Positions 28,587-52,992 of a stretch of DNA of 64,000 nt are shown here, in pieces (the first letter of the stretch is position 1; the number at the start of each line of letters is the position of its first letter). This DNA is from a candidate division FCPU426 bacterium (GTDB taxonomy: Bacteria; Oederibacteriota; Muellerivitia; Muellerivitales; Muellerivitaceae). The position numbers were made by a program, and so were the translations under genes. Location: contig CAWKAR010000033.1 of assembly GCA_963847625.1 (NCBI GenBank), positions 74,449 through 138,448 of the forward strand, in the 5' to 3' direction. The notes beneath the pieces were generated by a model that was not told the DNA's origin, searched no databases, and saw nothing but the letters and a program-made list of their open reading frames with translations.

Positions 28587-29921
28587 TTATGTTTTTTTGC
28601 CAAGGACTTCTTGAGCTTTCTCCGCAGCCTTGTGGCCCGAAAGGCAGGCGCCCTCGATGGTGGCCGGGAGTCCGGTATCGGTAAAGTCGCCGGCCAGGAA
28701 GATATGGGGGAAAGGCGTCTCACAAGGAGGTCTCAGGGAGTCCGTTTCCCGTGACCAGCGGAAGGTCGCCGACATTTCACGAGTGACTTTAGAATGAAGC
28801 ACCTGGGCTTTCCGGGCTAATGGACAACGAACCTTTAATTCTTCCGCCGCCAAGTCCACCAGTTCCTTATCCGTCATTCGGGAGAGTTTTTCGGCGGCGC
28901 TGGCCGTGAAGCTGAGGTACTGGCCCTCCCCCCTCCAATTCCAGTTGGCGTTGCGGTTGAAAACCCACTCGAATTGGGCGCCTGACAGCCCCACCAGGGA
29001 CTCGCAGGTGACTTCCAGGGAGAGGATCAAGTGAACCGACAGGATGGGGGATTTGCCCAGTTTTGGCAGGGTTTCCAAGGCGGGCCAGCTTCCTTTCGGC
29101 CAAACGGCGTGAAGGGAAGCGGGGGAAACGGCCAGGACCAGGGCATCGCCGGAATAAGTTTTTCCAGATCGGCCGGTGAGAGTGAAATCATTTCCATGAA
29201 CTTGAATTGTTTGGATTCTCTCATGAAAATGAACCATCCCCCCTTTTTCTTCAAGGTAAGGAGCCACCTGGGGAAAGGCTAATTCGCTCAAGGGTTTGAT
29301 GGCGAGCCCAAAGGCGCTGTCAAAGCGGGAACCGAAGAAAACATGGTGAAGCACCTCTCCCAGGCCCCTCAGGGGGGCGATATCCGTCCCTATGTTCATC
29401 ACCGCGTTGGAAAGAGGAACCCAGAACCTTTTCCGGGCGGCGGGACCTTGGCCCGAGGCGTCTAAAAATTGGGAGACAGTCTCCAAGCCAGGATTGATCT
29501 TGAAGGGTTTTTTTGAAAAAACCAAGAGAGCCCTGGCCAGGCTTATTTTTTCCCCGAAGGGAAAGGCGTTGGAAGTCAGAAGGCCATAGGCCAAGTGGAA
29601 AGGCGCGGGAAAGCGAGCGCATTGAAGCGATACTTTTCCCCCGGGTGTGAGCCAGGAAAGACGCAGGGGATCGATCCATCGGAAAGAATTTTCCACCCCC
29701 AAGCGTCTTAACAGCGCCAATGTTTCCCGGTAACAACCCATGAAAAGATGCGGGCCATTGTCGCAGGCATAGGGAAAAGCCTTGGTGGGGGCGGTGGAAT
29801 AGACTCGGCCGCCCAAAAACCCGCGGGATTCCAGAAGGTCCACCGAATGGCCCTTTTGCGCCAAGGCAGTGGCGGCCGCCACTCCGGCAAAACCACCCCC
29901 GACCACCAGGACCTTCGGCAT
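28587..29921 (-). CDS. hpnE: hydroxysqualene dehydroxylase (squalene-associated FAD-dependent desaturase, amine-oxidase fold)
   Basis: N-terminal FAD dinucleotide-binding motif VLVVGGGFAGVAAA. It is 444 aa and lies directly downstream of an hpnD-like gene. Confidence 0.75.
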   Translation of the reverse strand: MPKVLVVGGGFAGVAAATALAQKGHSVDLLESRGFLGGRVYSTAPTKAFPYACDNGPHLFMGCYRETLALLRRLGVENSFRWIDPLRLSWLTPGGKVSLQCARFPAPFHLAYGLLTSNAFPFGEKISLARALLVFSKKPFKINPGLETVSQFLDASGQGPAARKRFWVPLSNAVMNIGTDIAPLRGLGEVLHHVFFGSRFDSAFGLAIKPLSELAFPQVAPYLEEKGGMVHFHERIQTIQVHGNDFTLTGRSGKTYSGDALVLAVSPASLHAVWPKGSWPALETLPKLGKSPILSVHLILSLEVTCESLVGLSGAQFEWVFNRNANWNWRGEGQYLSFTASAAEKLSRMTDKELVDLAAEELKVRCPLARKAQVLHSKVTREMSATFRWSRETDSLRPPCETPFPHIFLAGDFTDTGLPATIEGACLSGHKAAEKAQEVLGKKT

Positions 29922-29960
29922 GAAAACCTCCTAAGATCACCCGGCCATTTACCGGATGGA

Positions 29961-30830
29961 TTAAAGCCACTTCAGCAAAAAACACCGGCCCATGGCGCCA
30001 AGAACCGAAAGGCCCTTATCCAATGAAGTCAAGGAAACCCTTCCCTCTAGGATTTTCTGCGGATGAATCCTTAATTGTTGGAAGAGCTTCACGTAAACAG
30101 CGGCAATGGCCTCGGCTGTTTTCAGCTCGCCCCTCTCCCGGGGAGTGAGGACCGCGCGGGCTTTCTCCAAAAAAGACCAGGCCCGGTCCAATTGGAATTC
30201 GATGAAGGAAACCCAATTGGAATCGTTCTCTCCGATCACGGCGGGATTTACATGGAAGCGTTTGAAATCCACTTGGGGGAAATACCGGCGTTTAAGGCCC
30301 GTGTCCTCCAGATAATCCCTCGTGATATTGACCAATTGCAGGAAAACCCCCAGATTTTCCGCGTAGCTGCGGTGGGCGGGGTCCTTGTAACCGAATATTT
30401 CCATGCTGGAAAGGCCTGGACCTCCCGCCACCTTCAAAGCATAGTTGTGGAGTTCCCGGAAGGATTTGAACTGGACGGGCTTCAAATCCATTTCCACCCC
30501 TGAAACAACGCGCCAAAGGGGTTCGGAGGACAGCCTGTGACGGATCACCACTGCCTGAAGCTTTTGGAACAGGGGTTGACCAGCTTTTCCTGCGAGACAA
30601 CCCTTGAGGTCCCGCTTGAAATCCGCCAACTTCTTTCTTTTGATGGGTAACGGGTCGGTTCCATCCGAAATTTCGTCTGCTTCCCAACAAAACCGGTAGA
30701 GGACCTCCATGGCTTCCCTCTTATCCCGGGGAAGAAGGAGCAGGGGCAAATAGAAACTGGTTTTTTTCCGAAGCAAGCCATCCTGGGGATTCACCAATCC
30801 CTCCTCACAGATTCTAAATGACGCGGTCAA
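29961..30830 (-). CDS. hpnD: presqualene diphosphate synthase (squalene/phytoene synthase family)
   Basis: Squalene/phytoene synthase family. It is 289 aa, carries the motif YLPLLLLPRDKREAMEVLYRFCWEADEISD and is adjacent to hpnE. Confidence 0.7.
   Translation of the reverse strand: MTASFRICEEGLVNPQDGLLRKKTSFYLPLLLLPRDKREAMEVLYRFCWEADEISDGTDPLPIKRKKLADFKRDLKGCLAGKAGQPLFQKLQAVVIRHRLSSEPLWRVVSGVEMDLKPVQFKSFRELHNYALKVAGGPGLSSMEIFGYKDPAHRSYAENLGVFLQLVNITRDYLEDTGLKRRYFPQVDFKRFHVNPAVIGENDSNWVSFIEFQLDRAWSFLEKARAVLTPRERGELKTAEAIAAVYVKLFQQLRIHPQKILEGRVSLTSLDKGLSVLGAMGRCFLLKWL
30643..30803. repeat. direct repeat copy 1 (within the hpnD 5' coding end); a near-identical copy lies at 32763..32924
   Basis: A 161-nt segment is repeated 2120 nt away with about 5 mismatches (gggtaacgggtcggttccatccgaaat...caccaatccctcc). 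Confidence 0.85.
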
Positions 30831-35081: not shown

Positions 35082-35954
35082 TTAAGTATTAAAAAGACCG
35101 GAAAAGGTTTTCAAAATTAAAAGTGTTTTATCCAAGGGGTTCAAAACGGGACGACTTTCGAAAACATTGTAGTCCATATCCCGGATTTTATTCAGGGTTC
35201 CTTGGCCGCTCAGGTAAGTGGCCTTCAGTTCCAGCTTCAGGCGTCCGTCGACCGCGGAAAGAAGAGGATAACCCTGGCGGAAATAGTTCTCCGTAAAATC
35301 CACGGCATTTTTCACCAAATACCTGGTACCGTCCGAATTCTTTCCTTTAAAAAAATCCTGTTCCGCCAATCCGGCTTTTTTCCATTCTCTTTTGGGGTAA
35401 TAGATCCGGTCGCGGCGTAAATCTATGGCGGTATCCTGCCAAAAGTTGATGAGTTGCAGACCGCCGCAAATGTAATCCGAGTAACGGTGGAGTTTCTCCT
35501 CGCGGATGCCTGAAATATAAAGCACCATGCGGCCCACGGGATTGGCGCTATGGCGGCAATAATAAAGCAAGGAGTTCCAAGTGGAATACCGGTGGATTCT
35601 CAAGTCCATCCGGTAGGCTTTTAGAAGGCACAAGGGAAGCGATAAGGGTATTTGAAAGGTTTTGATCGTATGGGCGAAGGCCTGGAGGATGGGAGGCGCT
35701 TTCTTGCCCTTCAGGGCGTTTTGAAGCCCCTTTTCCCAACGGTTCAATGCGGAAAGGCGTTTTCCTTCGTAGGCTTCCTCATCAGCGAAGTCATCTGCGG
35801 CGCGGGCAAAAGTGTATAAAGCCGCCACATGGAGACGGCTTTCCCCGGGCAACATCCAGGAAGCCACGGGAAAATTCTCGTAATGGCTTTGGGCCAAGCG
35901 AAGGCATTCCCGGTAGGCCGATTCCAAGCCGGATGGAAAGGTGTATTTCATCAA
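35082..35954 (-). CDS. hpnC: hydroxysqualene synthase (squalene/phytoene synthase family)
   Basis: N-terminal HYENFPVASWMLP...ALYTFARAADDFADE, which is characteristic of HpnC-type squalene synthase-like enzymes. 290 aa. Confidence 0.7.
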   Translation of the reverse strand: MMKYTFPSGLESAYRECLRLAQSHYENFPVASWMLPGESRLHVAALYTFARAADDFADEEAYEGKRLSALNRWEKGLQNALKGKKAPPILQAFAHTIKTFQIPLSLPLCLLKAYRMDLRIHRYSTWNSLLYYCRHSANPVGRMVLYISGIREEKLHRYSDYICGGLQLINFWQDTAIDLRRDRIYYPKREWKKAGLAEQDFFKGKNSDGTRYLVKNAVDFTENYFRQGYPLLSAVDGRLKLELKATYLSGQGTLNKIRDMDYNVFESRPVLNPLDKTLLILKTFSGLFNT

Positions 35955-36220: not shown

Positions 36221-37303
36221 ATGAATTTCAGCAAATCCTTTTACCTGGGAGCCCTCACTTCCTTCTTCGGATCGATCCTTTTGGCGGAAATCGCTTTAAG
36301 AATGACGGTTCCGGCAGGATTTTGGTACCGTCATTTCGACTTTTCCGGGGATATGACCAGCCTGGCGGAATTAAGGGACCGGCTTCAATATTTTCCCCGG
36401 AAAGAACCCGGTGATAAGCCGATCCTGCTGTTAGGAGACAGTGTTCTGGGAGCCAGCGCCCTGATGGAACACCGTGTTCCCGGCGCCCGGGGAAAAACCC
36501 TTTCAATTTTTTTAAGGGAGGACCTCCAAAGTTCAAATCAGTTCCCCCTGAGCTTGGGCTCCGACGGCCTTTTGCTCCCGGATATCCAAGCCCTGACCCC
36601 CGAGTTACTTCCCTTAAAACTACGCCGTATTCTTCTATTGTTGAACTTCCGGATGTTTTCCCAGGAATTCAATGGAGGCACCAAGGCCCTTTCGCGGTAT
36701 TTTCTCCAGGAGAACCTGCCGCAGGACATACAACAAAGGTTAGGGCAGGATTCCAAAGCGACTCCCGAGACCCGCCTCAGTGATAACCTGTACACCTTCT
36801 TCAGCTGGCATTGGTTCCTGTTCCGGGAAACCCAGATGGCCAAAACCCTTTGGTATTACCCCAGTCAAAAGGATTTCTTCCAGAGGTTTCTGGAAAAGGT
36901 GGTGGGGAAAAACGACACCCAATCGGATATTTTCGAGGCGGCCTTGAAACAAAAGGTGGCATCCTTTTATCAACCTTACCTTTGGGATATCCAGGGACTT
37001 CCCTTCACCAGCTTGAAGGCCATCTTGGACCAGTGGGCAGGACAAAATATTCCCGTACTTGTGGTCATGACTCCGCAAAACAAGAAATTCATGGGAAGTT
37101 ACTTGGATGAGGCCAGTTTCGGGAAAAATCGGAAGATTCTCGCAGCCTTCATGATGCCTTTTGAAAAAAAGGGCATGGTGTATCTGGATTGGGCCGACCA
37201 TTACCCGTCCGCTGATTTCCTCGACCATTGCCATTTGAAACCACAGGGAAACGAGAAATTTGCGATGGAATTGGCCGCGTTGTTAGAAAAGGAACTGCCA
37301 TGA
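36221..37303 (+). CDS. SGNH/GDSL-type hydrolase/acyltransferase-like protein (AlgX/AlgJ/DltD-like) with N-terminal membrane anchor
   Basis: GDS motif (ILLLGDSVLG) and a C-terminal DHCH..G motif resembling the SGNH catalytic Asp/His. Followed by a coupled small peptide and an MBOAT. Confidence 0.55.
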   Translation: MNFSKSFYLGALTSFFGSILLAEIALRMTVPAGFWYRHFDFSGDMTSLAELRDRLQYFPRKEPGDKPILLLGDSVLGASALMEHRVPGARGKTLSIFLREDLQSSNQFPLSLGSDGLLLPDIQALTPELLPLKLRRILLLLNFRMFSQEFNGGTKALSRYFLQENLPQDIQQRLGQDSKATPETRLSDNLYTFFSWHWFLFRETQMAKTLWYYPSQKDFFQRFLEKVVGKNDTQSDIFEAALKQKVASFYQPYLWDIQGLPFTSLKAILDQWAGQNIPVLVVMTPQNKKFMGSYLDEASFGKNRKILAAFMMPFEKKGMVYLDWADHYPSADFLDHCHLKPQGNEKFAMELAALLEKELP

Positions 37304-37422
37304 AGAACACCGATTTCTGGAAGGGGATTGGAATGGGGTTGGTCTTATTCCTTTTGTTCTTGGCGATCCTGTTTTTTTCCGGGGACCTGTCGGCTTCCAA
37401 ATTCATTTACGTGGATTTTTAA
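37300..37422 (+). CDS. 40-aa single-TM peptide translationally coupled between the SGNH and MBOAT genes
   Basis: ATG overlaps the SGNH stop (ATGA). Hydrophobic core GIGMGLVLFLLFLAILFF. Its stop is immediately followed by the MBOAT ATG. Confidence 0.4.
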   Translation: MKNTDFWKGIGMGLVLFLLFLAILFFSGDLSASKFIYVDF

Positions 37423-38625
37423 ATGATATTCAACACCAGCTGGTTCATGCTTTTTTTCTTCGTTTTTTATTTACTCTTGTGGCTGATTCCTCAGGCCCGG
37501 GTGCGTTTTTTTTACCTCCTGGTTTGCAGCTTCATATTCCAGTACCACTTCGCAGGTCCGGCCGGCATCACCCCCATCATCCTGATGGCCATTCTGACTT
37601 ATTTTTTCGGCCTTTGGGTCGGAAGATACCCTAAAGAAAATCCCGCCCGGAAAAAAATATTCATCTTCGGATTGCTGATCCCGGTTATTGGATTAGTTTG
37701 CTATAAGTATCCCTTTTTATTAATAAACTCCGCGGGGTCGGCGATCGGGGGAGGATGGGGGCAATGGATGACCAGCCATGCTTATCAGCCCGCTCTGCCC
37801 CTGGGAATCTCTTTTTTCACCTTCGAATTCGTTCATTACCTGACTGATATTTACCGAGGATCCGAACCAGTAAAAAATCCATTCAAATTCGGGATCTTCT
37901 GCCTTTTTTTCTCCTCGATCGTGGCCGGTCCCATCAAGCGGTACCAGCCTTTCCTTGCCCAAATGGAAGAAGACTTAAACCGGCCTCTTTGGCCTAAGGC
38001 TGTCCTTGGCTTGGCGCAAATGCTGCTGGGTTTTTTCAAGAAACTGGTGATCGCAGATAACGCAACCACTCTCATTCACCTGCTGGAGAAACGCACCGAC
38101 TTGACCTTTGGGCCGGTTTGCCTGCTGATGGCGCTGCTGTCCGTCAGGATTTTATTTGATTTCAGCGGTTATAGCGATATTGCGATCGGCATCGGTAAAA
38201 TGATCGGGCTTGACCTGCCGGTTAATTTCAATTTTCCATACATCTCCCGGAATATTTCCGAGTTCTGGAGGCGCTGGCATATTTCCTTGAGCAGTTGGAT
38301 CCGGGATTACATCTACATTTCTTTAGGTGGCAATCGCCTCGGTTGGGTGAGAAAATTCTTCAACCTCATGGTGACGATGTTCGTTTGCGGTTTATGGCAC
38401 GGAGCCAGCTGGCATTTCGGCCTCTGGGGCCTTTATCATGGAATGGGCTTGGTGCTTCATAATCTCTGGGAAAAATCATCCGTAGGCCGGAAGTGGTTCT
38501 CCTTGGGGCCCAGCCGTTGGGTGGATATCGCGGTGACGAATGTCTTCGTGGCTTACGGCTGGCTTTTATTTTTTTATCCCATGGACCAAGTCGTGAAAAT
38601 CACACGGTATTTATTTCAACTATAA
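37423..38625 (+). CDS. membrane-bound O-acyltransferase (MBOAT; AlgI/DltB/PatA-like)
   Basis: 400 aa and polytopic. It has the conserved MBOAT region RRWHISLSSWIRDYIYISLGGNR...LWHGASW with the invariant His. Confidence 0.8.
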   Translation: MIFNTSWFMLFFFVFYLLLWLIPQARVRFFYLLVCSFIFQYHFAGPAGITPIILMAILTYFFGLWVGRYPKENPARKKIFIFGLLIPVIGLVCYKYPFLLINSAGSAIGGGWGQWMTSHAYQPALPLGISFFTFEFVHYLTDIYRGSEPVKNPFKFGIFCLFFSSIVAGPIKRYQPFLAQMEEDLNRPLWPKAVLGLAQMLLGFFKKLVIADNATTLIHLLEKRTDLTFGPVCLLMALLSVRILFDFSGYSDIAIGIGKMIGLDLPVNFNFPYISRNISEFWRRWHISLSSWIRDYIYISLGGNRLGWVRKFFNLMVTMFVCGLWHGASWHFGLWGLYHGMGLVLHNLWEKSSVGRKWFSLGPSRWVDIAVTNVFVAYGWLLFFYPMDQVVKITRYLFQL

Positions 38626-39384: not shown

Positions 39385-39461
39385 GGACGTTTAGCTCAGC
39401 TGGTTAGAGCGTCGCGTTCACATCGCGAAGGTCACTGGTTCAAGTCCAGTAACGTCCACCA
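39385..39461 (+). tRNA. tRNA-Val (anticodon CAC), CCA encoded
   Basis: Cloverleaf read by eye: acceptor GGACGTT/AACGTCC, D-arm GCTC..GAGC, anticodon stem TCGCG/CGCGA with loop TTCACAT, and a T-arm ACTGG-TTCAAGT-CCAGT. Confidence 0.85.
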
Positions 39462-39748: not shown

Positions 39749-40534
39749 ATGGGCTTATCAATGGAAACTTTATCTCAAATCATTCAAAAATCTAAAAAAC
39801 GCCTTCTTCAAATGCACTTCGAAAGCGGTGTAGGACACATCGGGGGCAATCTTTCCTGCCTGGACACCCTCATGGTTTTGCACCACCAAGTCCTAAAAAA
39901 AGAGGATCTCTTCATCCTTTCCAAGGGTCATGCCGCGGGAGCCCTTTATATCACTCTCTGGTCGAGGGGAAAACTCAAGGATGAGGATTTAAAGCTTTTT
40001 CACAAGGAACCCACCAAACTCAGCGGCCATCCCGCCCCCAACTGGCATGAGGATATTATTTTCGCCACCGGCAGTCTGGGGCATGGTTTTTCCCTGTCGG
40101 CCGGGCTGGCTTTGGCCAAAAAATTCAAGGGCGAATCTGGGAGGGTTTTCTGCCTGATGTCGGACGGAGAATGGCAGGAAGGCTCCAACTGGGAGGCTCT
40201 CATCTTTTCCCTCCACCAGAAATTGGAATCCTTGACTATCATCATTGACGCCAACGGCTTCCAGGGATTCGGATCGACCAAGGAAGTCGCCGGCTTGGAT
40301 TCCCTGAATGGGAAATTCCGTTCTTTTGGGATGCCTACCCAGGAGGTCAATGGCCATGATTTAAATGCCATGGAGAAGGCCCTCAATCAAAACACGCCCG
40401 GACCCCGGGCCATCATCGCCAATACCGTCAAGGGCCATGGTGTTTCTTTCATGGAAAATAAATGGGAATGGCATTACCTGCCCTTGAAAGAGGATCAGTA
40501 CCGCCAAGCCCTCCAAGAGATGGAAAAACCATGA
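39749..40534 (+). CDS. tkt: transketolase, N-terminal (TPP-binding) subunit of a split transketolase
   Basis: 261 aa with a GDG-type TPP motif (LMSDGEWQEGSNWEA) and HIGGNLS..SKGHA. ATGA coupling to the next gene. Confidence 0.8.
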   Translation: MGLSMETLSQIIQKSKKRLLQMHFESGVGHIGGNLSCLDTLMVLHHQVLKKEDLFILSKGHAAGALYITLWSRGKLKDEDLKLFHKEPTKLSGHPAPNWHEDIIFATGSLGHGFSLSAGLALAKKFKGESGRVFCLMSDGEWQEGSNWEALIFSLHQKLESLTIIIDANGFQGFGSTKEVAGLDSLNGKFRSFGMPTQEVNGHDLNAMEKALNQNTPGPRAIIANTVKGHGVSFMENKWEWHYLPLKEDQYRQALQEMEKP

Positions 40535-41436
40535 GAAACATCTTTTGCGATACCCTGGTTAAAAGCGCTGGCCGGCCCGACTTTGTTTTTCTCACTGGCG
40601 ATTTGGGATACATGGCCCTCGAACCCCTGCAAAAAGCCGCAAAAACACGTTTTATCAACGCGGGTATTTCGGAGCAAAACATGGTATCGGTGGCGGCAGG
40701 CCTGGCTAGAGGGGGTTTTTCCCCTTGGGCCTACAGTATTGCCCCTTTTATTTACGCCCGTCCCCTGGAGCAGGTCCGTAACGACGTGTGTTTCCACGAT
40801 TTGCCGGTCAAACTGGTTGCTAACGGCGGCGGCTACGCCTATGGGGTCATGGGGGCCACCCACCACGCCATCGAGGATTACGGCATCCTGCTTTCTCTTT
40901 TAAACATGCATGTTTTCGTTCCCGCTTTCGGGTCGGATATTCCGCCGATCGTGGAAAAACTCTTTCATTTAAACCATCCCTCCTATTTACGGCTGGGCCG
41001 CGATGAAAAACCCAAGGATTTGGAGATACCAAGTTACGCTCCCTGGCGAAAGGTCCTGGAAGGCGGAGGCCCTGTCCTTCTCATCGTCGGCCCTTTAGTC
41101 GGCGGAATTCTCTCCGTATTAAGCCAATTGGAAGAAAAAAAACGCCCTCGAATTTGGGTTTTAACCGAATTGCCCCTGGAGGAAGGAACCATTCCGGCGG
41201 AATTCCTAAACGATTTGCGGCATTCCAAGCGTCTGATGGTGGCCGAGGAACACGTGGCCCACGGGGGCGCCGGGGAAATGATAAGCCGGGTTCTTCTCTT
41301 AAAAGGGGAAGCCCCGAAACGATTTTCTCATTTTTACGCCCAAGGATACCCTTCCGGTTATTATGGGTCCCAGACTTTCCATCGAAAAGAATCCGGCTTG
41401 GCGGCGGACAACCTCTTGAAAGAATTGGAATTCTAA
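40531..41436 (+). CDS. tkt: transketolase, C-terminal (pyrimidine-binding/C-domain) subunit
   Basis: About 300 aa. Contains FINAGISEQNMVSVAAGLA. Its start overlaps the upstream stop (ATGA). The ORF in the six-frame track begins further upstream in the same frame. Confidence 0.8.
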   Translation: MRNIFCDTLVKSAGRPDFVFLTGDLGYMALEPLQKAAKTRFINAGISEQNMVSVAAGLARGGFSPWAYSIAPFIYARPLEQVRNDVCFHDLPVKLVANGGGYAYGVMGATHHAIEDYGILLSLLNMHVFVPAFGSDIPPIVEKLFHLNHPSYLRLGRDEKPKDLEIPSYAPWRKVLEGGGPVLLIVGPLVGGILSVLSQLEEKKRPRIWVLTELPLEEGTIPAEFLNDLRHSKRLMVAEEHVAHGGAGEMISRVLLLKGEAPKRFSHFYAQGYPSGYYGSQTFHRKESGLAADNLLKELEF

Positions 41437-43391
41437 TGCACATCGAGGAGAAGGTAAAAAAAATCCAAGGGCCCATATTGGTTTTAGGTGCCAGCGGTTT
41501 TATCGGCAGCCATCTGCTTCAAATGCTGTTGAAATACCGGGACGACGCCTTTGGCACGGTTTTCCATATCCCCGCGTGGCGGTTGGAGAGCTGCCCCCCG
41601 GCTCAGGTGCTCCACGCCGATCTCCTAGTGGACGCGAATCTGGATTCCCTTTTTAACCAGATCAACCCTAAAACGGTTTTTAACTGCGTCGCCTATGGCG
41701 CCTATTCTTTTGAAATCGACAGCTCCCTGATTTACCGCACCAATTTTAATATGACCGAGAAAATCCTCAGCCACCTGGAAAAAAGGAGTATTGCCGCTTA
41801 TGTCCATGCCGGCAGTTCTTCCGAATATGGCGATAACGCTTCAGGGCCGGTTGAAAACGATCCACTGGCCCCCAATAGCGATTACGCGGTTTCAAAGGTG
41901 GCGGCCGCGAATCTTCTTTTCTTTTATGGCTGCAAAAAAAACTTCCCCTGCGCCAACCTGCGCCTTTATTCGGTTTACGGCCCCTTGGAGGACTCCTCCC
42001 GGTTGATCCCGAACCTGGTTAAATCGGGCCTGGAAGGGAAATATCCCGAATTGGTCAACCCTGAGGTTTCACGTGACTTTGTCTATATCCAGGACGTTTG
42101 TGAAGCTTTCCTGGACACGGCCATCAACCTCAAGCCCCCTTATTACGGTGACTCATTCAATATCGGGAGCGGAAAAAAAACCACCATCCGAGAAGCGGCA
42201 AAAATAACCGGGGAACTCTTTAAGATCAAGAATCCGCCACCCTTTAATTCCATGCCCGAACGAAAATGGGACGTGAAAGATTGGTTTGCGGACACGCGCA
42301 AAGCCAAGGAACTCCTGGGTTGGGAAGCACGCACTTCCTTCCGGCAAGGGTTTGAGTTGACCGCCGCGTGGTATCAAAAGCTTGAGGACAAGGAAAAGTA
42401 CCGGAAGTCCTCCAAACTATTCGCGTTGGATGCCAAACACAGCCTCTCCGGCGTGATTTCCTGTTATAAAAACGCCGAGACCATTCCTTTGATATACGAA
42501 AGAGTAAAGGCGGCCTTTGAAAAACTAAAAATCGATTACGAAATCATTCTCGTGAATGACAACAGCCCGGATAACAGCGAGGAAATCATTCTCGACCTCA
42601 GCCGCAAGGACGACCATGTCATCGGAGTCTCCCATTCGAGCAAATTCGGTACCCAGGCGGCCTATCGAAGTGGAATGGAAATTTCCACCAAAAACGGGTG
42701 CGTGTTATTGAACGCCGACCTCCAGGATCCGCCGGAATTGATCGAAAAATTCGTGGAAAAATGGCGCGAAGGCAACGATGTGGTGTTTGGAAGGCAAAAA
42801 AACAGCGATATTCCTTTTTTCATGAGGACGGTTTACAACCTCTTTTATTTCATCTTTGATTACTTCTCTTACCTGGCCATTCCCCATTATGCCGGTGACT
42901 TTTCACTGATCGACCGGCGGGTGGTGAAAGCCATCCTCCAATTCCAGGAGAGGGCCTTTTTTATGAGGGGAGTCCGGGCCTACGTGGGATTCAAACAAAC
43001 GGGCGTGGACTACACCCGTACCGGAAACGCTTCGGGGAAAACCATCGCCAATTTCTTTAAAAACATCGATAACGCGAAGAAAGGGATCCTGTCTTACAGT
43101 TATACGCCCCTATCGATCCTCAGTTTCTCAGGATCCATGCTTTTCCTTTTGAGCCTGACCCTGGGCGCCCTGCAAGTCGTCGTCCGTTTGCTTTGGCCCG
43201 ACCGCGCCCCCAGGGGGACTACGACCATCCTTCTTGCTGTCCTCTTGTTCGGGTCCATTAATTTATTCGCCCTCGCCATTTTGGGCGAGTACATCGCCAA
43301 AATATTCGAGGAAGTCAAACAACGGCCGCACTTTATCCGGCGCAGCGTCATTAAGGGTGGCGAGGTCCGGTCAGTGATTGAAAATTCCTGA
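41436..43391 (+). CDS. fusion protein: N-terminal extended-SDR NAD-dependent sugar epimerase/dehydratase plus C-terminal ArnC/DPM1-like GT2 polyprenyl-phosphate glycosyltransferase with two C-terminal TM helices
   Basis: SDR region: GASGFIGSHL (GxxGxxG) and YAVSKVAAANL (YxxxK). GT2 region: ..EIILVNDNSPDNS.., SSKFGTQAAYRSG and LNADLQDPPELI (compare the DPM1/ArnC MDADLQHPP motif), then two TM helices. The start TAATG overlaps the upstream stop. Confidence 0.75.
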   Translation: MHIEEKVKKIQGPILVLGASGFIGSHLLQMLLKYRDDAFGTVFHIPAWRLESCPPAQVLHADLLVDANLDSLFNQINPKTVFNCVAYGAYSFEIDSSLIYRTNFNMTEKILSHLEKRSIAAYVHAGSSSEYGDNASGPVENDPLAPNSDYAVSKVAAANLLFFYGCKKNFPCANLRLYSVYGPLEDSSRLIPNLVKSGLEGKYPELVNPEVSRDFVYIQDVCEAFLDTAINLKPPYYGDSFNIGSGKKTTIREAAKITGELFKIKNPPPFNSMPERKWDVKDWFADTRKAKELLGWEARTSFRQGFELTAAWYQKLEDKEKYRKSSKLFALDAKHSLSGVISCYKNAETIPLIYERVKAAFEKLKIDYEIILVNDNSPDNSEEIILDLSRKDDHVIGVSHSSKFGTQAAYRSGMEISTKNGCVLLNADLQDPPELIEKFVEKWREGNDVVFGRQKNSDIPFFMRTVYNLFYFIFDYFSYLAIPHYAGDFSLIDRRVVKAILQFQERAFFMRGVRAYVGFKQTGVDYTRTGNASGKTIANFFKNIDNAKKGILSYSYTPLSILSFSGSMLFLLSLTLGALQVVVRLLWPDRAPRGTTTILLAVLLFGSINLFALAILGEYIAKIFEEVKQRPHFIRRSVIKGGEVRSVIENS

Positions 43392-43467
43392 TAAAGTTGG
43401 ATGAGCTTCCAAAGGCCGATCGCCAGGGTGGAACTTCCCGCTGTCCTGGTTTCCGGGTTACAATTCC

Positions 43468-44538
43468 CTAACGGGAATCACCGTAATAATAAAAAAGTTT
43501 TTTAACGTCGTTCTTCCCCCCAAAAGGTAGCTGGGTGCGCTCGATCCAGTCGATGGCGAATATCTGGTTTCCGCGGGGCCAGGTCAGCCGTCCAAGAACT
43601 CTTCCGGTGGCGGGATGGAGGGCGACGATACCACACCGGCTCTTGCGATGGTCCAAGCCCGGGGCGTAAGAATGAAACTTCGGAAGCACCTTGGAGACTC
43701 CCACAAAGAGAACATCCTTGACGAAACAAAGACCGCGCGTCCAGCTTTCAAGCCTTTGGACCGGCACAAAACGGTCTCCGAGGATAGGCCCGACTTCGCC
43801 GAAACCGCTGTTGTCCACCCATAAGTCCTTCCCGTGGAACCGGGCTGAATGGGGCCGCGTGAGCCCGCGCACCACCATTTCGCGTGTGCGCCCGGAAAAA
43901 ATCCCCCCCCTGCCTTCCACCGGGTAATCCGGATCACCGGGAACCTTCTTCGTCACTTGGTCGCTAGTAGCCGAGAAGAAAGAATCTCTCAATGTTCTTC
44001 CAGCCGCGATGGAGTTTAATTGAATGTGGTTTTTCTGAAAAATGGGTTTGCGGTCCCCGATGCATTTCGGCCACCAGACCCGCGTGGCTCCCAGGTCGTA
44101 ATCCAGCCGGACGACCACATTCTGGCCGACCGCGTTTCCATGCAGTTGGGCGCCGATGAAGGCGAGATCATGCAGGTAAAGACGTCCGGGAAGAAACCGC
44201 GCGCGGGTCGGCAAAAGGGGGTTTCCCCCCAGTTCCATCAAAAGGTTGGGGTTGCGGGTACAGGCGATATGGACTGTCCCTTTTGGGCGGTTGACGGCCA
44301 AACCGGATGGATGGGGGACATGAATCCACGTGGTGGTTGGGTGGCTTAAAGCCAGGACAAGATGCTCGTATTCCCGGGTCACTAAAAGGGTGATGCCGAG
44401 CCGTTCGAGGGTTTGCTTCCATCCCTTGTCCGCCTGGCACTCCAGAAGCTTGGGATCGACGCCCGTCTCGTTCCAAAGCCCTACGATTTGCGCCGGATCG
44501 CGTAGCATAAATTGATGTTTTTCGTGTAGCGGGTTCAT
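43468..44538 (-). CDS. hypothetical protein (about 356 aa), last gene of the sulfotransferase-like/GT2 operon
   Basis: I chose the start at ATG 44538 (MNPLHEKHQ..), which is ATGA-coupled to the GT2 stop. No motif recognised with confidence. Confidence 0.45.
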   Translation of the reverse strand: MNPLHEKHQFMLRDPAQIVGLWNETGVDPKLLECQADKGWKQTLERLGITLLVTREYEHLVLALSHPTTTWIHVPHPSGLAVNRPKGTVHIACTRNPNLLMELGGNPLLPTRARFLPGRLYLHDLAFIGAQLHGNAVGQNVVVRLDYDLGATRVWWPKCIGDRKPIFQKNHIQLNSIAAGRTLRDSFFSATSDQVTKKVPGDPDYPVEGRGGIFSGRTREMVVRGLTRPHSARFHGKDLWVDNSGFGEVGPILGDRFVPVQRLESWTRGLCFVKDVLFVGVSKVLPKFHSYAPGLDHRKSRCGIVALHPATGRVLGRLTWPRGNQIFAIDWIERTQLPFGGKNDVKKLFYYYGDSR

Positions 44539-45221
44539 TTCATTCTTAACCAAAGTTGGAAGGCCCCCCAATACATGCGCGCCGCGCTTTTGAAATTCGT
44601 CGTGGACTTGCCCCCGTGGCGGCTCCATCCCCCCTGCCGTATTTCCAAAACGGGTACCTTCATCCGGCTGCATCTTGCCAGAATCTCGGCATCCAGGAGG
44701 TCGCCGTCCGAGTCCAAGGAGACGCGACGCAAGAGGCTCGAATCGAAGATTTTAGGAGTTCCATTCACATCATGGCATTTTACGCGAAAAAGAATACAGC
44801 ACTCCAGGTTATACAACAGGGAGCCCATCTCCCGTAAAAAATGGCCCCGGGTGTGCCTCGAGATTTTAGCCATGGAGCCGGGTTTTTCCAAAAGTTGCTT
44901 GAAGAGCGCGGGAATCGTGGCCGGGTCGGTGCGGGCGGAATTGGCATAACAGAGAAAACGTCCCCGGGCCGATTCCAGGCCCTTTCTCACCGAAAGGCCC
45001 CATCCTCCCAACGGATTTTCAACGACACGGACATTTTTATGTTTTTTCGATAATTCCCGGCAAATTTGAGGAGAGTTATCCCAGCAAGCGTTGGGAACCA
45101 GGATGATTTCCCAGGGTTTTCCCCGGAACTCGCTCAAATAACTATCGATGACCCCAGCGATATGGTCGGCTTGGTTATGCACCGGAAGAACGACCGAAAG
45201 TTCCGGCTTCATCATCGCCAC
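44535..45221 (-). CDS. family-2 glycosyltransferase (GT-A fold)
   Basis: LSVVLPVHNQADHI (compare the GT2 motif LSVVIPxYNE) and a DXD-like region. 228 aa. Confidence 0.7.
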   Translation of the reverse strand: MAMMKPELSVVLPVHNQADHIAGVIDSYLSEFRGKPWEIILVPNACWDNSPQICRELSKKHKNVRVVENPLGGWGLSVRKGLESARGRFLCYANSARTDPATIPALFKQLLEKPGSMAKISRHTRGHFLREMGSLLYNLECCILFRVKCHDVNGTPKIFDSSLLRRVSLDSDGDLLDAEILARCSRMKVPVLEIRQGGWSRHGGKSTTNFKSAARMYWGAFQLWLRMK

Positions 45222-45239
45222 TTCCTGACGGGCAATCGA

Positions 45240-46178
45240 CTATCGCCAGAAATCTTCGTAACCCAGGATTTTAAGCCAGGGGCCCGCTTGTTCGCCGACT
45301 TGCTTGCGTTCCTCGGCGCTTAATTCCTTCGCGGTAGCCATATTGGCCTCGGACGTGGGGGTCCGGATGGTGCCCCAAGGATGAACCGTTTGGAGGGGTT
45401 GACTGTTCCATGACGGCTTCGCGAGTGTCGGCGCGGATTTCAAGCCGGCTTTTTCGCAAAAAGCGCCGAGCACACCCACGGGATCCTTCACGATATCCTC
45501 AAAACGAAGGACATGCACCCGTTTGGGCTCGCGTTCCTTCCAAAGCAGGGCGTAATACTGGCAAAGCGTCCAACCGATCAAGTAATGTTCGAGGGAAAGG
45601 GGAACAGCCCGTTTCTTGGTGTCCGCGTAGGCGGACCAAGGGTTGCGGACGATGTGAAGGATTTGGAAATCCGGCGAATCCGCCAAAATCCTGGGGGCGT
45701 CCACGACGATGATGGGGCTGTAACCCACATAAGCCTGAGGATCGGACGGCCTTTTATAATCCTTCCAAGCCTCAAAGGTTGAATAGTAGAAGGATTCCAC
45801 AATCCGGGCGCGGGTTCTCGGCCCCTTGGCCAGGTGTTCGATGAAGATTTTCCTGCGCTCGGCGTCGTCCAATTGCATCGGCGTGTCGCGGAACTTGCTC
45901 GACTGGGGAGTCTTGATGCGCACCTTGCATTCCTCGTCGATAATGGCGTGATAATCCCCCGCCGGGGATGCGCTGAGATCAAAAACCGGCCAGCGGTACT
46001 TTTGGGGGAATGTCGACTCGAAATGGTCCCGTACCAGGCGGGTGCCCGGCTGGGACTCGAAAGGATATACGAACAGCTGGGGATGGCCGTCGAGCAGGCG
46101 GTGCGTCGTATTGCCGCCATTTTCGTACATCGCGGAGATCATGATCAGCTTGAATTTGTCGGGCATGGCACGCTCCAA
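45240..46178 (-). CDS. sulfotransferase-family-like protein (tentative)
   Basis: 312 aa. The N-terminal P-loop-like IMISAMYENGGNTTH and overall composition resemble bacterial sulfotransferase families. I could not confirm a PAPS-binding motif by eye. Confidence 0.35.
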   Translation of the reverse strand: MERAMPDKFKLIMISAMYENGGNTTHRLLDGHPQLFVYPFESQPGTRLVRDHFESTFPQKYRWPVFDLSASPAGDYHAIIDEECKVRIKTPQSSKFRDTPMQLDDAERRKIFIEHLAKGPRTRARIVESFYYSTFEAWKDYKRPSDPQAYVGYSPIIVVDAPRILADSPDFQILHIVRNPWSAYADTKKRAVPLSLEHYLIGWTLCQYYALLWKEREPKRVHVLRFEDIVKDPVGVLGAFCEKAGLKSAPTLAKPSWNSQPLQTVHPWGTIRTPTSEANMATAKELSAEERKQVGEQAGPWLKILGYEDFWR

Positions 46179-50799: not shown

Positions 50800-52992
50800 T
50801 CATTTCTTTTGAGTGATCTTGCCGAAAGCTGAGGCGGGTACCATCTCCCAACCTTTGTCGCCGGGTTTTTCCCAAATCAAATGAACCGCCAGGTTGGAGC
50901 CCTGATCCTTCTCGAATTCCAGCCGGATGGGATGGGACCCGGTCCTGAGGGATACCGGCTTCTCCAGAAGAATGGGTTTGTTGTCCAGGGACAACCTGGC
51001 CCGGTCCGTGGTCAATACTTGGAACTGGTAATTTCCTTTGCGGGGGACGGTCAGGCTTCCATCCCACCGGATGCGGAAGGGAGGGGCGGCGGTGAAGGGG
51101 AATTCCCATTTGGTGCCGAAATTCAAAAGGGCATCCCACCGAACCACCAATGGCCGGGCCTTCCAACGGCCCGACTGGATGTAAACGCCCTTCAAACCCC
51201 GGTCCCAAGGCTTGTAACTGGAGAAGGTTTCCTTTGCGACCGCGTCCACGTACACCAAGGTATGGCCCAGGGCGTCCCTCAACCCCGTTTGCTGGCCCAT
51301 GGGAAACAATAGCTGGAGGAAATCCAGTGTGCCGGCTTTATCCTCGCCTAAGAGGAATATCGAGTCCTTATCGGCGGGGAGGCGGCCGCGGGAAAGGGCC
51401 GCCAGGCTGAAGGCCGACATGTTGCCCCGGGCCGAGTAACCCAAAAAGTCCACGGTGTGATTTTTATAATAAAAGGGCTCGATATAGTAATAAAAGCCCC
51501 CGGGGACGTGGCGTTCCAAGTCTTCCAAAGTCCGGCCGATATAGGTTTGCTCCACCCCGAAACTCCTCCAGCATTCCTCGTTTCCGGCTTGGTCCGCGAA
51601 ATAAGTGCGGGCATTTTGCGAGGCGATGATACCCAACAAAAGATATAGAAGAACCGCCGGAATCCTTGAGCCCCGGAAAGCCCCGGCTTTTTGCCAGAAA
51701 AAATCCAACGCGCTGCCGGCGAAATAGGCCGCGAAAGGCGTCAAAGCCACCAGGCGGTTGGAATGCGACACATCGGTGGATAGGAGCCCGGGAAGGGCCA
51801 TGACCCAAAATCCCCAGAGTGAATAAAAGCCGGAGGGTTCCCGTCTTTTTCTCCAAAGAAGCGCCAGGCCCAGGACAAAAAGGATGGCGGTGGAGTCGTC
51901 GAGCATCCGATGGCCGGGAATGTTGTGGCGGGGATTCCGGTCCCCGGAGCGGTTGAACATCAAGGCGGTTCCGGTCCAGACGTCCCAAAGGGGTTCCAAG
52001 CTCTTCTGCCGCAAGATCTCGGTGCCGATGAATAATTCCTTCTCCCGGTGCCCGATATTTCCCCGGCTCCACATGCAGGCCAGGAGCGGCGCGGTCAGGG
52101 CCAGCACCAACAGGAAATAAATCAGGATAGGCCGAAGCATGTTTTTCCTTTTACGCACGACCAACTCGTAAAAAGAAAAAACCACCATGAGCAGAGGCAC
52201 GATCTTGAAGGCCTGGTAAGTGTAGAAGCCGGCACTTACAAACAATGCGGAAAGATAAAAGGCCCACTTCTTACCGCTTTGAAGCCAGTGGGACCAAAAG
52301 GCGATTGCCCCGAAGAGGTAGAAGGGAACCTGGAGGCTGGGGTAGCCGTTGCGGGTTTCGATCCAATTCCAACGCATGACGGCCAGGAGGAACAAAGAAA
52401 AAAGCGCCGTGCGTTGCCCGGACCATTGCCGGATGGCCCAGTAAACCAAGGGGAAGGCGGCCAGGGACAGGAGGATGAAGAAGAGGTGGAAAGTGAAATA
52501 GGAAGAACCCACCAGGCCGAACCATCCCGCCAATTGGTAGAAGAGAAGGATCTCGGGCACCTCGTAGTCCAACAACTCCCCGAAAGGGCGCCAGCCCTCG
52601 TGCAGGATGCGCAAGGCGCAAAGGCCGGTCAAACCCTGGTCGGTATGCATTCCCGAGGGCATGGAATCCAGGCGGTAGACCCGGAGAAAAAAGCCCAATC
52701 CCAGGATCAGCGCGGCCAGTAGGATCTCGATTTTCAAGGGAAGAGGGTTGGAGATGGCTGGGGAAGGGGAGGAAAGGCCCCGGAGCTTCCAAAGAGCCAA
52801 CCCGTAGAACAACAGGCCGGGCCAAAGAGTGAGGGGGTTTCCGGTCCTGGAAAGAAAAGCCTGTCCCACCAGGGCCAGGATGAGTACCGGAAAAACCGGC
52901 ATAAACGGTGAAATGGACGGTGCCGGCCTTTTTTCCGGATTTTTAAAAAGTTGGGATAAAACCAACTCAAAACTCCTTTTTAGTTTGTTCAA
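50800..52992 (-). CDS. GT-C-fold membrane glycosyltransferase with a C-terminal PA14-like carbohydrate-binding domain, paralog 8
   Basis: The polytopic N-terminal about 550 aa are GT-C-like, with a first-loop D-Q/G motif. The C-terminal about 110 aa (RWDGSLTVPRKGNYQFQVLTTDRARLSLDNKPIL..AVHLIWEKPGDKGWEMVPASAF) look like PA14/GLEYA. Confidence 0.65.
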   Translation of the reverse strand: MNKLKRSFELVLSQLFKNPEKRPAPSISPFMPVFPVLILALVGQAFLSRTGNPLTLWPGLLFYGLALWKLRGLSSPSPAISNPLPLKIEILLAALILGLGFFLRVYRLDSMPSGMHTDQGLTGLCALRILHEGWRPFGELLDYEVPEILLFYQLAGWFGLVGSSYFTFHLFFILLSLAAFPLVYWAIRQWSGQRTALFSLFLLAVMRWNWIETRNGYPSLQVPFYLFGAIAFWSHWLQSGKKWAFYLSALFVSAGFYTYQAFKIVPLLMVVFSFYELVVRKRKNMLRPILIYFLLVLALTAPLLACMWSRGNIGHREKELFIGTEILRQKSLEPLWDVWTGTALMFNRSGDRNPRHNIPGHRMLDDSTAILFVLGLALLWRKRREPSGFYSLWGFWVMALPGLLSTDVSHSNRLVALTPFAAYFAGSALDFFWQKAGAFRGSRIPAVLLYLLLGIIASQNARTYFADQAGNEECWRSFGVEQTYIGRTLEDLERHVPGGFYYYIEPFYYKNHTVDFLGYSARGNMSAFSLAALSRGRLPADKDSIFLLGEDKAGTLDFLQLLFPMGQQTGLRDALGHTLVYVDAVAKETFSSYKPWDRGLKGVYIQSGRWKARPLVVRWDALLNFGTKWEFPFTAAPPFRIRWDGSLTVPRKGNYQFQVLTTDRARLSLDNKPILLEKPVSLRTGSHPIRLEFEKDQGSNLAVHLIWEKPGDKGWEMVPASAFGKITQKK

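Follow-up and report, generated by a model that had tools for sequence, protein, structure and literature searches.

A dehydrogenase/glycosyltransferase fusion family linked to a split transketolase, and a member with a divergent glycosyltransferase half in a candidate division FCPU426 bacterium

The 64-kb window analyzed here (the whole stretch of DNA under study, from contig CAWKAR010000033.1 of a candidate division FCPU426 bacterium) encodes a 651-amino-acid (aa) protein in which an extended short-chain dehydrogenase/reductase (SDR) is fused to a glycosyltransferase family 2 (GT2) half resembling the polyprenyl-phosphate glycosyltransferases (Pren-P GTs) GtrB and ArnC. Its gene is flanked upstream by two genes for a split transketolase (TK)-like enzyme, TK-N and TK-C, and downstream by a trio encoding a DUF4915 beta-propeller, a small GT2-fold protein that lacks a DXD motif and a sulfotransferase (Table 1). 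This six-gene module recurs elsewhere.

Table 1. Features of the fusion locus and its surroundings, with window positions and supporting evidence (NDP, nucleoside diphosphate; ThDP, thiamine diphosphate; TM, transmembrane; Und-P, undecaprenyl phosphate)
Feature	Window position	Strand	Evidence or remark
tRNA-Val(CAC), directly upstream of the TK-fusion operon	39385..39461	+	Rfam 71 bits; ARAGORN
Split transketolase-like ThDP enzyme, N-terminal (PP-domain) subunit, 261 aa	39749..40534	+	Pfam Transketolase_N 1e-24; PDB 6yak 5e-49
Split transketolase-like enzyme, C-terminal (Pyr-domain) subunit	40531..41436	+	Pfam Transket_pyr 8.5e-20; PDB 6yaj 4.6e-31
Fusion, SDR half, extended-SDR NDP-sugar oxidoreductase/epimerase-like, aa 1-325 (domain aa 14-320)	41436..42410	+	Pfam, NCBIfam, PDB, profile, Foldseek
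Fusion, inter-domain linker, aa 326-336, SSK..F.LD..HS	42411..42443	+	S326, K327, D332, S336 invariant in family alignment
Fusion, GtrB/ArnC-type GT-A domain with divergent active site, aa 337-545	42444..43070	+	Family alignment; GtrB/ArnC residue roles
N426, at GtrB D94 (proposed catalytic base)	42711-42713 (codon AAC)		D in 192/196 of family
Q454, at GtrB R122 (Und-P phosphate binder)			R in 190/196 of family
S457, at GtrB R125 (Und-P phosphate binder)			R in 193/196 of family
N531, at GtrB R200 (conserved Arg after R197)			R in 191/196 of family
Fusion, juxtamembrane helix 2, two TM helices, C-terminal beta-hairpin, stop codon	43071..43391	+	GtrB alignment; AlphaFold2
DUF4915/TIGR03032 protein, six-bladed beta-propeller, first of trio	43468..44508	-	
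Small soluble GT2-fold protein without DXD, 228 aa, second of trio	44535..45221	-	Pfam Glycos_transf_2 3.8e-13
Sulfotransfer_3 family sulfotransferase, 312 aa, third of trio	45240..46178	-	Pfam 2.6e-11
PMT_2 GT-C glycosyltransferase with C-terminal PA14	50800..52992	-	Pfam PMT_2 and PA14; neighbor clusters c11, c18

The fusion gene (41436-43391, forward strand) lies within an uninterrupted open reading frame (ORF) at 41154-43391. We take the ATG at 41436 as the real start because the N-termini of homologues fall within a few residues of it, where a conserved EEKIKKLQGPILVLGASGF is found, and because it shares a TAATG (41434-41438) with the stop codon of TK-C. Pfam assigns Epimerase (PF01370, aa 14-244, E 5.6e-39) and GDP_Man_Dehyd (aa 15-307) to the first half and Glycos_transf_2 (aa 340-500, E 5.7e-24) to the second, for which NCBIfam returns PgfS (aa 337-634, 7e-56) and the ArnC model PRK10714 (aa 336-640, 3.5e-41), both at scores far under the equivalog cut-offs. 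In phmmer searches of the PDB the N-terminal half retrieved uridine diphosphate (UDP)-sugar 4-epimerases (MoeE5, 5e-26; TM0509, 2.5e-24), and the C-terminal half matched the whole of GtrB sll0501, including its TM region (2e-57), as well as ArnC (1e-33); the GtrB match spans chain residues 23-325 (5eke), with a family profile score of 263 bits. The AlphaFold2 model (pLDDT 79.4) shows both folds and, at the C-terminus, a beta-hairpin as is typical of GtrB, with TM helices at aa 557-586 and 595-627 and low confidence at 533-555. Foldseek aligned it to GtrB (TMt 0.78) and to epimerases (TMt 0.81-0.84), and no solved chain among the Foldseek matches covered both halves. The GT-A domain, two juxtamembrane helices and C-terminal TM anchor that characterize a Pren-P GT are present along the full length of the C-terminal half. 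The predicted product is a two-domain inner-membrane protein, an extended SDR joined to a GtrB/ArnC-type Pren-P GT, and belongs to a large uncharacterized family.

A preliminary description of this DNA had proposed an extended SDR, an ArnC/DPM1-like GT2 and a two-TM C-terminus in one polypeptide, an architecture that the Pfam, NCBIfam, PDB and AlphaFold2 results bear out. The GxxGxxG and YxxxK motifs it pointed to are present, as GASGFIG at 18-24 and S127/Y150/K154. The ADLQDPPE motif it called diagnostic is there too, but the first Asp of the DXD is Asn (LLN426-A-D428-LQD). It also raised the prospect of an inactive SDR, and the opposite was seen: the SDR keeps all its motifs, and it is the GT2 half that diverges. 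Its further worry, an undetected frameshift or stop between the halves, would make the fusion an artefact of separate SDR and GT2 genes joined by a sequencing or assembly error. Unfused SDR-only and GT2-only relatives do occur in other genomes, which is all that favors this idea; against it, an unbroken ~650-aa ORF with the conserved linker is found in hundreds of independent assemblies. With more than 120 database proteins and 80 loci sharing this ~650-aa architecture, we rejected the artefact, which has next to no chance of being correct. What the description left out was the strongest partner of the fusion, the split TK-like pair directly upstream.

The fusion is a widespread architecture and is not peculiar to this locus. 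A scan of one genome per species detected at least 572 relatives; our locus analyses use the best 80 of these at least 572 species-genome relatives, and residue conservation refers to 196 homologues. The 120 best database matches are all 650-690 aa long, contain both domains and are 61-78 % identical, and over these and the 80 loci every protein is full length, with identities of 56-78 %. The best 80 loci derive from Acidobacteriota, Planctomycetota (including the complete genome of Tundrisphaera sp. TA3), Armatimonadota, Myxococcota, Geobacteraceae, Nostoc, Nitrospinales, Bdellovibrionaceae, FCPU426 and Firestonebacteria, and the family spans about ten phyla. Source annotations are generic ("NAD-dependent epimerase/dehydratase family protein" or "dolichol-phosphate mannosyltransferase"). 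In an exhaustive search of 50 %-identity representatives, the core family collapsed to one representative; more than 30 additional fused representatives were found at 28-45 % identity, along with SDR-only and GT2-only relatives at 42-49 %. Either domain may be degenerate in this wider SDR-GT2 superfamily: among P0157, P0164, P0175 and P0177, three have lost the GT2 DXD motif and GDF region and kept the SDR, and P0177 has lost the SDR motifs and retained the GT2. We found no paper on an SDR-Pren-P GT fusion or on a transketolase link of one, and a literature search for DUF4915/TIGR03032 gave zero matches.

The SDR half appears intact and is predicted to bind an NDP-sugar. Relative to E. coli GalE, G18/G21/G24 correspond to G7/G10/G13, S127/Y150/K154 to S124/Y149/K153, R213/R276/D279 to the UDP binders R231/R292/D295, and W283 to Y299. 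All of these, together with D62 and E130, are invariant or nearly so across the homologues (GxxGxxG and the Ser-Tyr-Lys triad in at least 192/196 each; R213, R276 and D279 in 195-196 of 196), and the window SDR shows 0/93 mismatches at columns at least 95 % conserved. Because the GalE-type NDP-binding residues are invariant, this half is expected to act on a nucleotide sugar and not on a lipid-linked one.

By NCBIfam, PDB phmmer, profile and Foldseek comparisons alike, 4-epimerases rank first for the SDR half, a few bits above dehydratases. The family profile separates them by a small margin (BcUGAepi 114 bits, TM0509 113, MoeE5 107, RmlB 98), the score for GalE (TIGR01179, 68-71 bits) is under the cut-off of 262, and Rv3634c (7ys8) is among the best structural matches (TMt 0.82-0.84, Foldseek). 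The catalytic loop, S127-S128-S129-E130-Y131, places an invariant Glu, E130, at the position of GalE V127. In NDP-hexose 4,6-dehydratases an acid/base pair directly follows the catalytic Thr (T-D-E in RmlB, T-S-E in GMD), and UDP-glucuronic acid (UDP-GlcA) decarboxylases (UXS and the ArnA C-terminal domain) have the loop T-S-E-V-Y-G. We rejected a 4,6-dehydratase of the RmlB/GMD type, as the Glu lies one position later, at E130, putting the motif out of register; the RmlB and LegB NCBIfam scores are 83-90 bits vs cut-offs of 365-475. A UDP-GlcA decarboxylase (UXS/ArnA) was likewise rejected, the loop reading G-S-S-S-E-Y-G with no T-S-E register. The match to the ArnA model NF005998 is confined to aa 8-35 (E 7e-4), and PDB matches to UXS are at ~1e-9 to 1e-10.

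The split TK-like pair is the most consistent neighbor of the fusion. Both subunits have the Carboxydothermus split TK as their best PDB match. TK-C probably starts at the ATG at 40531, which shares an ATGA with the stop codon of TK-N; in the longer ORF, the start of the family proteins falls at M24. Through the ATGA and TAATG overlaps, TK-N, TK-C and the fusion are predicted to be translationally coupled. We clustered all neighbors in the 80 loci without prior assumptions and took upstream counts from the 66 loci with at least 2 kb of upstream sequence. TK-N and TK-C lie directly upstream of the fusion on the same strand in 49/66 loci and within 10 kb in 61/66, and the linkage persists at fusions only 36-41 % identical despite shuffled gene order. 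The module that emerged consists of TK-N, TK-C and the fusion, usually followed by one or two Zn-ribbon S-adenosylmethionine methyltransferases (directly 3' of the fusion in 44/69 loci); the cluster-2 methyltransferase was sought in the window and none was found.

Residue conservation in the pair points to an enzyme of altered specificity. TK-N keeps the ThDP/metal motif as an SDG variant (S138-D139-G140...N169) and four histidines, H30, H61, H94 and H242, all conserved in 54 homologues; we take the histidines to correspond to the ketol-donor site (E. coli TK H26, H66, H100, H261). The cofactor-activating Glu of TK-C, in an SEQN motif, is conserved in 58/60 homologues. Where canonical split TK has THAG...GEDGxSHQ, the whole TK-C family has GNGGGYxYGVMGxTHH, so that Gly takes the place of the acceptor His and Met that of the Asp (conserved in 54-60 of 60 homologues). 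The replaced His and Asp are presumably the binders of the sugar-phosphate acceptor (E. coli H461 and D469). The predicted TK-like enzyme has intact ThDP and ketol-donor sites and a remodeled acceptor site.

These features bear on a simpler reading of the family, in which the fusion combines an ordinary UDP-hexose/UDP-N-acetylhexosamine (HexNAc) 4-epimerase with an Und-P-sugar synthase, as in the Pgf and PpgS systems, and the TK genes are housekeeping neighbors. The SDR matches cited above (BcUGAepi, TM0509, Rv3634c) fit such a reading, as does the Pgf system, which follows the same logic with unfused proteins. It is difficult, however, to regard as incidental a TK that is co-localized in 74-92 % of loci, with a spread of about ten phyla and at identities as low as 36 %, whose genes are coupled to the fusion and whose C-subunit acceptor motif is remodeled in a family-specific manner. 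The SDR catalytic loop, with its invariant and non-canonical E130, also argues against it, and we consider this reading very improbable.

The GT2 half of the window protein departs from its family. Residue roles were taken from a 2025 GtrB cryo-TREM study (PMC12698845) and an ArnC preprint, and GtrB numbering was carried to the window protein through the GtrB alignment of the C-terminal half. According to these two sources, the proposed catalytic base is the Asp that opens the DXD (GtrB D94, ArnC D100, PfDPMS D89), three arginines bind the Und-P phosphate (GtrB R122, R125, R197; ArnC R128, R137, R205), and mutating GtrB R122 or R125 abolishes activity. The window protein keeps D428 (D96), Q430 (Q98), D431 (D99), D488 (D157) and R528 (R197), and so has the metal/nucleotide ligands of Pren-P GTs (D428, Q430); the catalytic base and two of the Und-P arginines are replaced, by N426 and by Q454 and S457. 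At GT2 columns at least 95 % conserved it has 23/124 mismatches, against a family median of 1, and it is the top outlier of all 196 proteins at these positions. A 78 % identical relative, P0002, matches it at 78.5 % in the GT-A domain, 82 % in the TM region and 77 % in the SDR, and the two share eight identical derived residues. Judged by sequence, this divergence is not decay, and the GT2 half appears to be under purifying selection. Because the proposed base and two Und-P arginines are lost in what is the top outlier of the family, it is doubtful that this half acts as an Und-P-sugar synthase.

Loss of GT2 residues correlates with the presence of the trio of DUF4915, small GT2 and sulfotransferase. 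Among loci with visible context, with P0035 included as a prospective test, GT2 degeneration was found in 6/6 loci with DUF4915 and sulfotransferase vs 2/48 canonical loci (Fisher p = 1e-6, in a test that ignores phylogenetic non-independence and on a sample partly chosen post hoc). Three distant fused representatives, P0164, P0175 and P0035, have an obviously dead GT2 (with D94E/D96N at the GtrB positions in P0035), an intact SDR and shuffled gene order, and their operons hold TK-N, TK-C, sulfotransferase, DUF4915 and small GT2; the P0051 locus has at least DUF4915 and the TK pair.

The contig of P0002 (locus L081) is syntenic with the downstream block of the window, having DUF4915, a ~226-aa GT2 and a sulfotransferase. 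At L081:10001-14212 (JGI 3300020984; also L082), two tandem fusion genes are followed by a methyltransferase. Copy A (P0002) has 0/93 mismatches in the SDR and 19/124 in the GT2. In copy B (P0121) the GT2 is intact, with 7 conservative changes, and the SDR has 16/93 mismatches, among them the loss of the NDP binders (R213Y, R276Q, D279E). From sequence, the pair looks like complementary degeneration, a sub-functionalization of the bifunctional fusion. With the second L081 copy as query, no orthologue of copy B above 67 % identity was found for the window genome, and none on its 143,779-bp contig.

Lineages with a degenerate GT2 also inform the order of the two reactions. If the order were reversed, the GT2 would make a polyprenyl-phosphate sugar first, and the SDR and TK would then modify the lipid-linked sugar. 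A precedent exists in an SDR epimerase that modifies a lipid-linked sugar once it has been transferred (PMC11127046); the arrangement can be likened to DprE1/DprE2 in mycobacteria and ORF13 in Citrobacter youngae O2, and the fusion would tether the SDR to the membrane beside the GT2 active site. The dead-GT2 lineages, however, keep SDR and TK intact, which would hardly be expected if the SDR needed the product of the GT2, and the GalE-type NDP-binding set R213, R276 and D279 is invariant in the 196 sequences. We regard a reversed order as very improbable.

The members of the trio themselves offer limited functional clues. The DUF4915 protein is modeled as a confident six-bladed beta-propeller (pLDDT 89.9) with no specific functional match; we attempted an assignment from the fold, and the propeller is generic, so none was possible. 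The small GT2 family has Y-T/A-N-S/A-A-R-T in place of the DXD (YANSARTDP in the window; six orthologues aligned) and also conserves DxNGTPK and GGxSTT motifs; its orthologues, at L015, L058, L064, L081, L086, L088 and L090, always occur with DUF4915 and sulfotransferase. Orthologues of the sulfotransferase are 94 % identical in L081 and 49-72 % identical in L086, L088 and L090.

The preliminary description had viewed the window protein as a plausible single-protein donor synthase, a fully active bifunctional enzyme whose SDR epimerizes, dehydrates or decarboxylates a UDP-sugar and whose GT2 loads it onto Und-P for 11 GT-C enzymes in the window. Its count of these enzymes was correct: there are seven ~700-770-aa paralogues, two ~520-aa paralogues, one 603-aa PMT_2 protein and one PMT_2+PA14 protein. 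The full-length GtrB/ArnC homology with TM helices, the retention of D428, Q430, D431, D488 and R528 and the purifying selection on the GT2 half are all consistent with activity, and GT-C genes are both abundant in the window and enriched near family members. Among the 52 long loci, a PMT_2-type GT-C lies within 10 kb of the fusion in 23 and a protein of at least 450 aa with at least 8 TM segments is found near it in 37; YfhO and other polytopic neighbors also occur at family loci. The flippase of the three-component Gtr-type systems, GtrA (PF04138), was sought in the window without a match, and lies beside the module in 5/80 loci, including Nostoc loci that resemble complete Gtr-type systems.

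The linkage is uneven across the window's GT-C types. The PMT_2-PA14 GT-C is the only one that recurs beside the module (tblastn matches at L002, L019, L055 and L090), as NHL proteins likewise do. The seven paralogues of the tetratricopeptide repeat (TPR) type had no orthologues in any related locus fetched, and their absence beside the module elsewhere speaks against the donor-synthase model. So do N426, Q454 and S457, which stand where 190-193 of 196 proteins have D, R and R, with the proposed base and the Und-P binders changed at sites where mutation abolishes GtrB activity, and the status of the window protein as the most divergent member at conserved GT2 positions. The model also leaves the conserved TK pair unexplained. 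The family architecture and the GT-C enrichment uphold part of the claim; as the window GT2 is degenerate, and as degeneration tracks the six-gene set, the claim as a whole is only partly supported, and full bifunctionality of the window protein seems to us possible but rather unlikely.

GtrB (Synechocystis sll0501; PDB 5EKP, 9NYC/9NYD) is the Und-P-glucose synthase of the three-component Gtr system for O-antigen glucosylation. The C-terminal 315 aa of the fusion align to the entire GtrB at ~34 % identity, with D96, Q98, D99, D157 and R197 kept, and some related loci encode GtrA and a GT-C; unlike GtrB, the fusion has an N-terminal 325-aa SDR and a split TK partner, and the window has no GtrA. 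The Arn pathway of E. coli and Salmonella follows the same logic, from an SDR working on a UDP-sugar through a GT2 that forms the Und-P-sugar to a GT-C that consumes it. The ArnA SDR is fused to a formyltransferase and not to ArnC. Domain scans of the window module revealed no aminotransferase, formyltransferase or deformylase, the fusion SDR lacks the T-S-E decarboxylase register, and the ArnC score is 141 bits vs a cut-off of 529.

The Pgf system of Streptococcus mutans provides PgfS, the best NCBIfam match of the GT2 half (190 bits; cut-off 500, so not an equivalog), and combines an SDR epimerase (PgfE), a GtrB-type PgfS and YfhO-type GT-Cs (PgfM1/PgfM2) for extracytoplasmic glycosylation; unlike the module here, it uses separate proteins and lacks a TK, a methyltransferase, DUF4915 and a sulfotransferase. 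In the mycobacterial galactosamine pathway, an epimerase (GalE1, Rv3634c), a polyprenyl-phosphate-HexNAc synthase (PpgS, Rv3631) and a GT-C (Rv3779) are encoded close together. These proteins are unfused and lack a TK; their likeness to the fusion was seen in the fold of the SDR half. The pentofuranose system of Citrobacter youngae O1/O2 (GT136; PMC11127046) resembles the window in that a lipid-linked monosaccharide is diversified by an SDR, ORF13, and in its GT-C with a carbohydrate-binding module, to be compared with the PA14-bearing GT-C here. It differs in its synthase, a phosphoribosyl pyrophosphate (PRPP)-dependent PPPRS in place of a GT2, and in the proposed substrate of ORF13, the lipid-linked sugar; the fusion SDR, by contrast, keeps its NDP-binding residues.

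The chemistry that we infer for the family from these domain identities and gene linkages would begin with the SDR half, which would bind a UDP- or other NDP-sugar and create or reduce a keto group. The TK-like enzyme would then probably attach a two-carbon (hydroxyacetyl) unit to the keto-sugar, and the fused GT2 half would load the product onto Und-P at the cytoplasmic face. Methyltransferases, often next in the operon, would belong to this scheme, and a flippase and periplasmic GT-C enzymes would consume the lipid-linked sugar. Split-gene TKs have been proposed, without in vitro proof, to add a hydroxyacetyl branch to an oxidoreductase-made keto-sugar in miharamycin and amipurimycin biosynthesis (PMC12247030). 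The likeness lies in a split TK paired with a keto-sugar-generating oxidoreductase; those are Streptomyces secondary-metabolite clusters, whereas here many phyla share a split TK tied to a membrane-bound Pren-P GT. The leading candidate for the product is a TK-made C2-branched keto-sugar.

For the window copy, the mechanism would most likely be that of a membrane-tethered SDR partner of the TK, its GT2-like half serving as a scaffold, oligomerization or sugar-nucleotide-binding module in which lipid loading is weakened or altered. The reading that we favor, an NDP-sugar SDR/GT2 fusion working with a TK whose GT2 half in the window is not a canonical Und-P-sugar synthase for the GT-Cs, commands about half of our confidence. 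Several points weigh against it, besides the two limits of the Fisher comparison given above. The identity of the GtrB base is itself unsettled between D94 and D157 (PMC12698845), and the GT2 half could be active because the equivalents of D157, of the D96/Q98 ligands and of R197 are retained; the lost arginines might be replaced in function by R453 and K455. Within the 64-kb window no further evident Pren-P GT was found that could load the lipid, and we rejected the small GT2 as a replacement, given its weak, generic GT2 similarity (ArnC/DPMS E ~2e-3, and in the PDB generic GT2 matches only) and its lack of a DXD. The SDR resembles 4-epimerases, whose keto intermediate normally stays bound, a poor fit with handing a free keto-sugar to a TK, and the nature of the sugar, the reaction of the TK and the sequence of steps are points that we infer. 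A more specific version of the favored reading, that the module makes a new C2-branched sugar by TK-catalyzed C-C bond formation on a nucleotide keto-sugar (the product being methylated in the common version of the module and sulfated in that of the window) with the window GT2 as a pseudoenzyme scaffold, we consider unlikely in its entirety.

The surroundings of the module add several observations. An Rfam search for riboswitches or other RNAs upstream of the TK genes returned only the tRNA-Val, and promoter and terminator signals were at chance level. The 40-46 kb block has a G+C content of 0.52-0.56 vs 0.45-0.50 in its flanks; together with the tRNA-Val, this suggests that window positions 40000-46000 may be a horizontally acquired island. 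The seven large GT-C paralogues, 26-41 % identical to one another, form a near-tandem array (8151-28723, reverse strand); several have C-terminal TPRs, and only some reach Pfam PMT_2. Inside the array, a 595-aa protein (22290-24077, forward strand) has a spermine/spermidine-synthase domain at aa 349-499 and no Pfam match in its N-terminal ~350 aa. Two squalene/phytoene-synthase genes and a flavin amine-oxidase gene lie among the GT-C genes (28587-30830 and 35082-35954, both on the reverse strand) and constitute an HpnC/HpnD/HpnE-like set for squalene synthesis; IspH is at 698-1567. An MBOAT-family membrane O-acyltransferase (37423-38625, forward strand) follows a 360-aa protein without a family match, and this pair (36221-38625) resembles AlgI/DltB-type glycan acylation pairs. 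Further downstream, a 1745-aa GH9 cellulase-like protein (57566-62803, forward strand) includes a skewed region (60300-61900, GC skew -0.44) that yields Val-rich antisense ORFs with a period of ~100 aa, suggesting ~300-nt tandem coding repeats.

Lipid-linked monosaccharides of the GtrB/ArnC/DPM1 type drive periplasmic glycosylation of lipopolysaccharide, teichoic acids, arabinogalactan and proteins, and modifications that use such donors underlie serotype conversion and polymyxin resistance. The family described here is highly conserved in hundreds of species and has no characterized member, and cultured carriers (Nostoc punctiforme, Tundrisphaera sp. TA3) render its function testable. The context-dependent, repeated decay of one domain of the fusion with the other invariant would provide a natural example of sub-functionalization and pseudoenzyme formation. 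A remodeled split TK accompanied by methyl- or sulfotransferases suggests a novel modified sugar and perhaps a new ThDP reaction acting on nucleotide sugars, of a kind sought by biocatalysis groups and so far without an in vitro demonstration. The proposed pathway, if correct, would represent the first case of TK-dependent sugar branching in the synthesis of cell-envelope glycans and would extend across about ten phyla.

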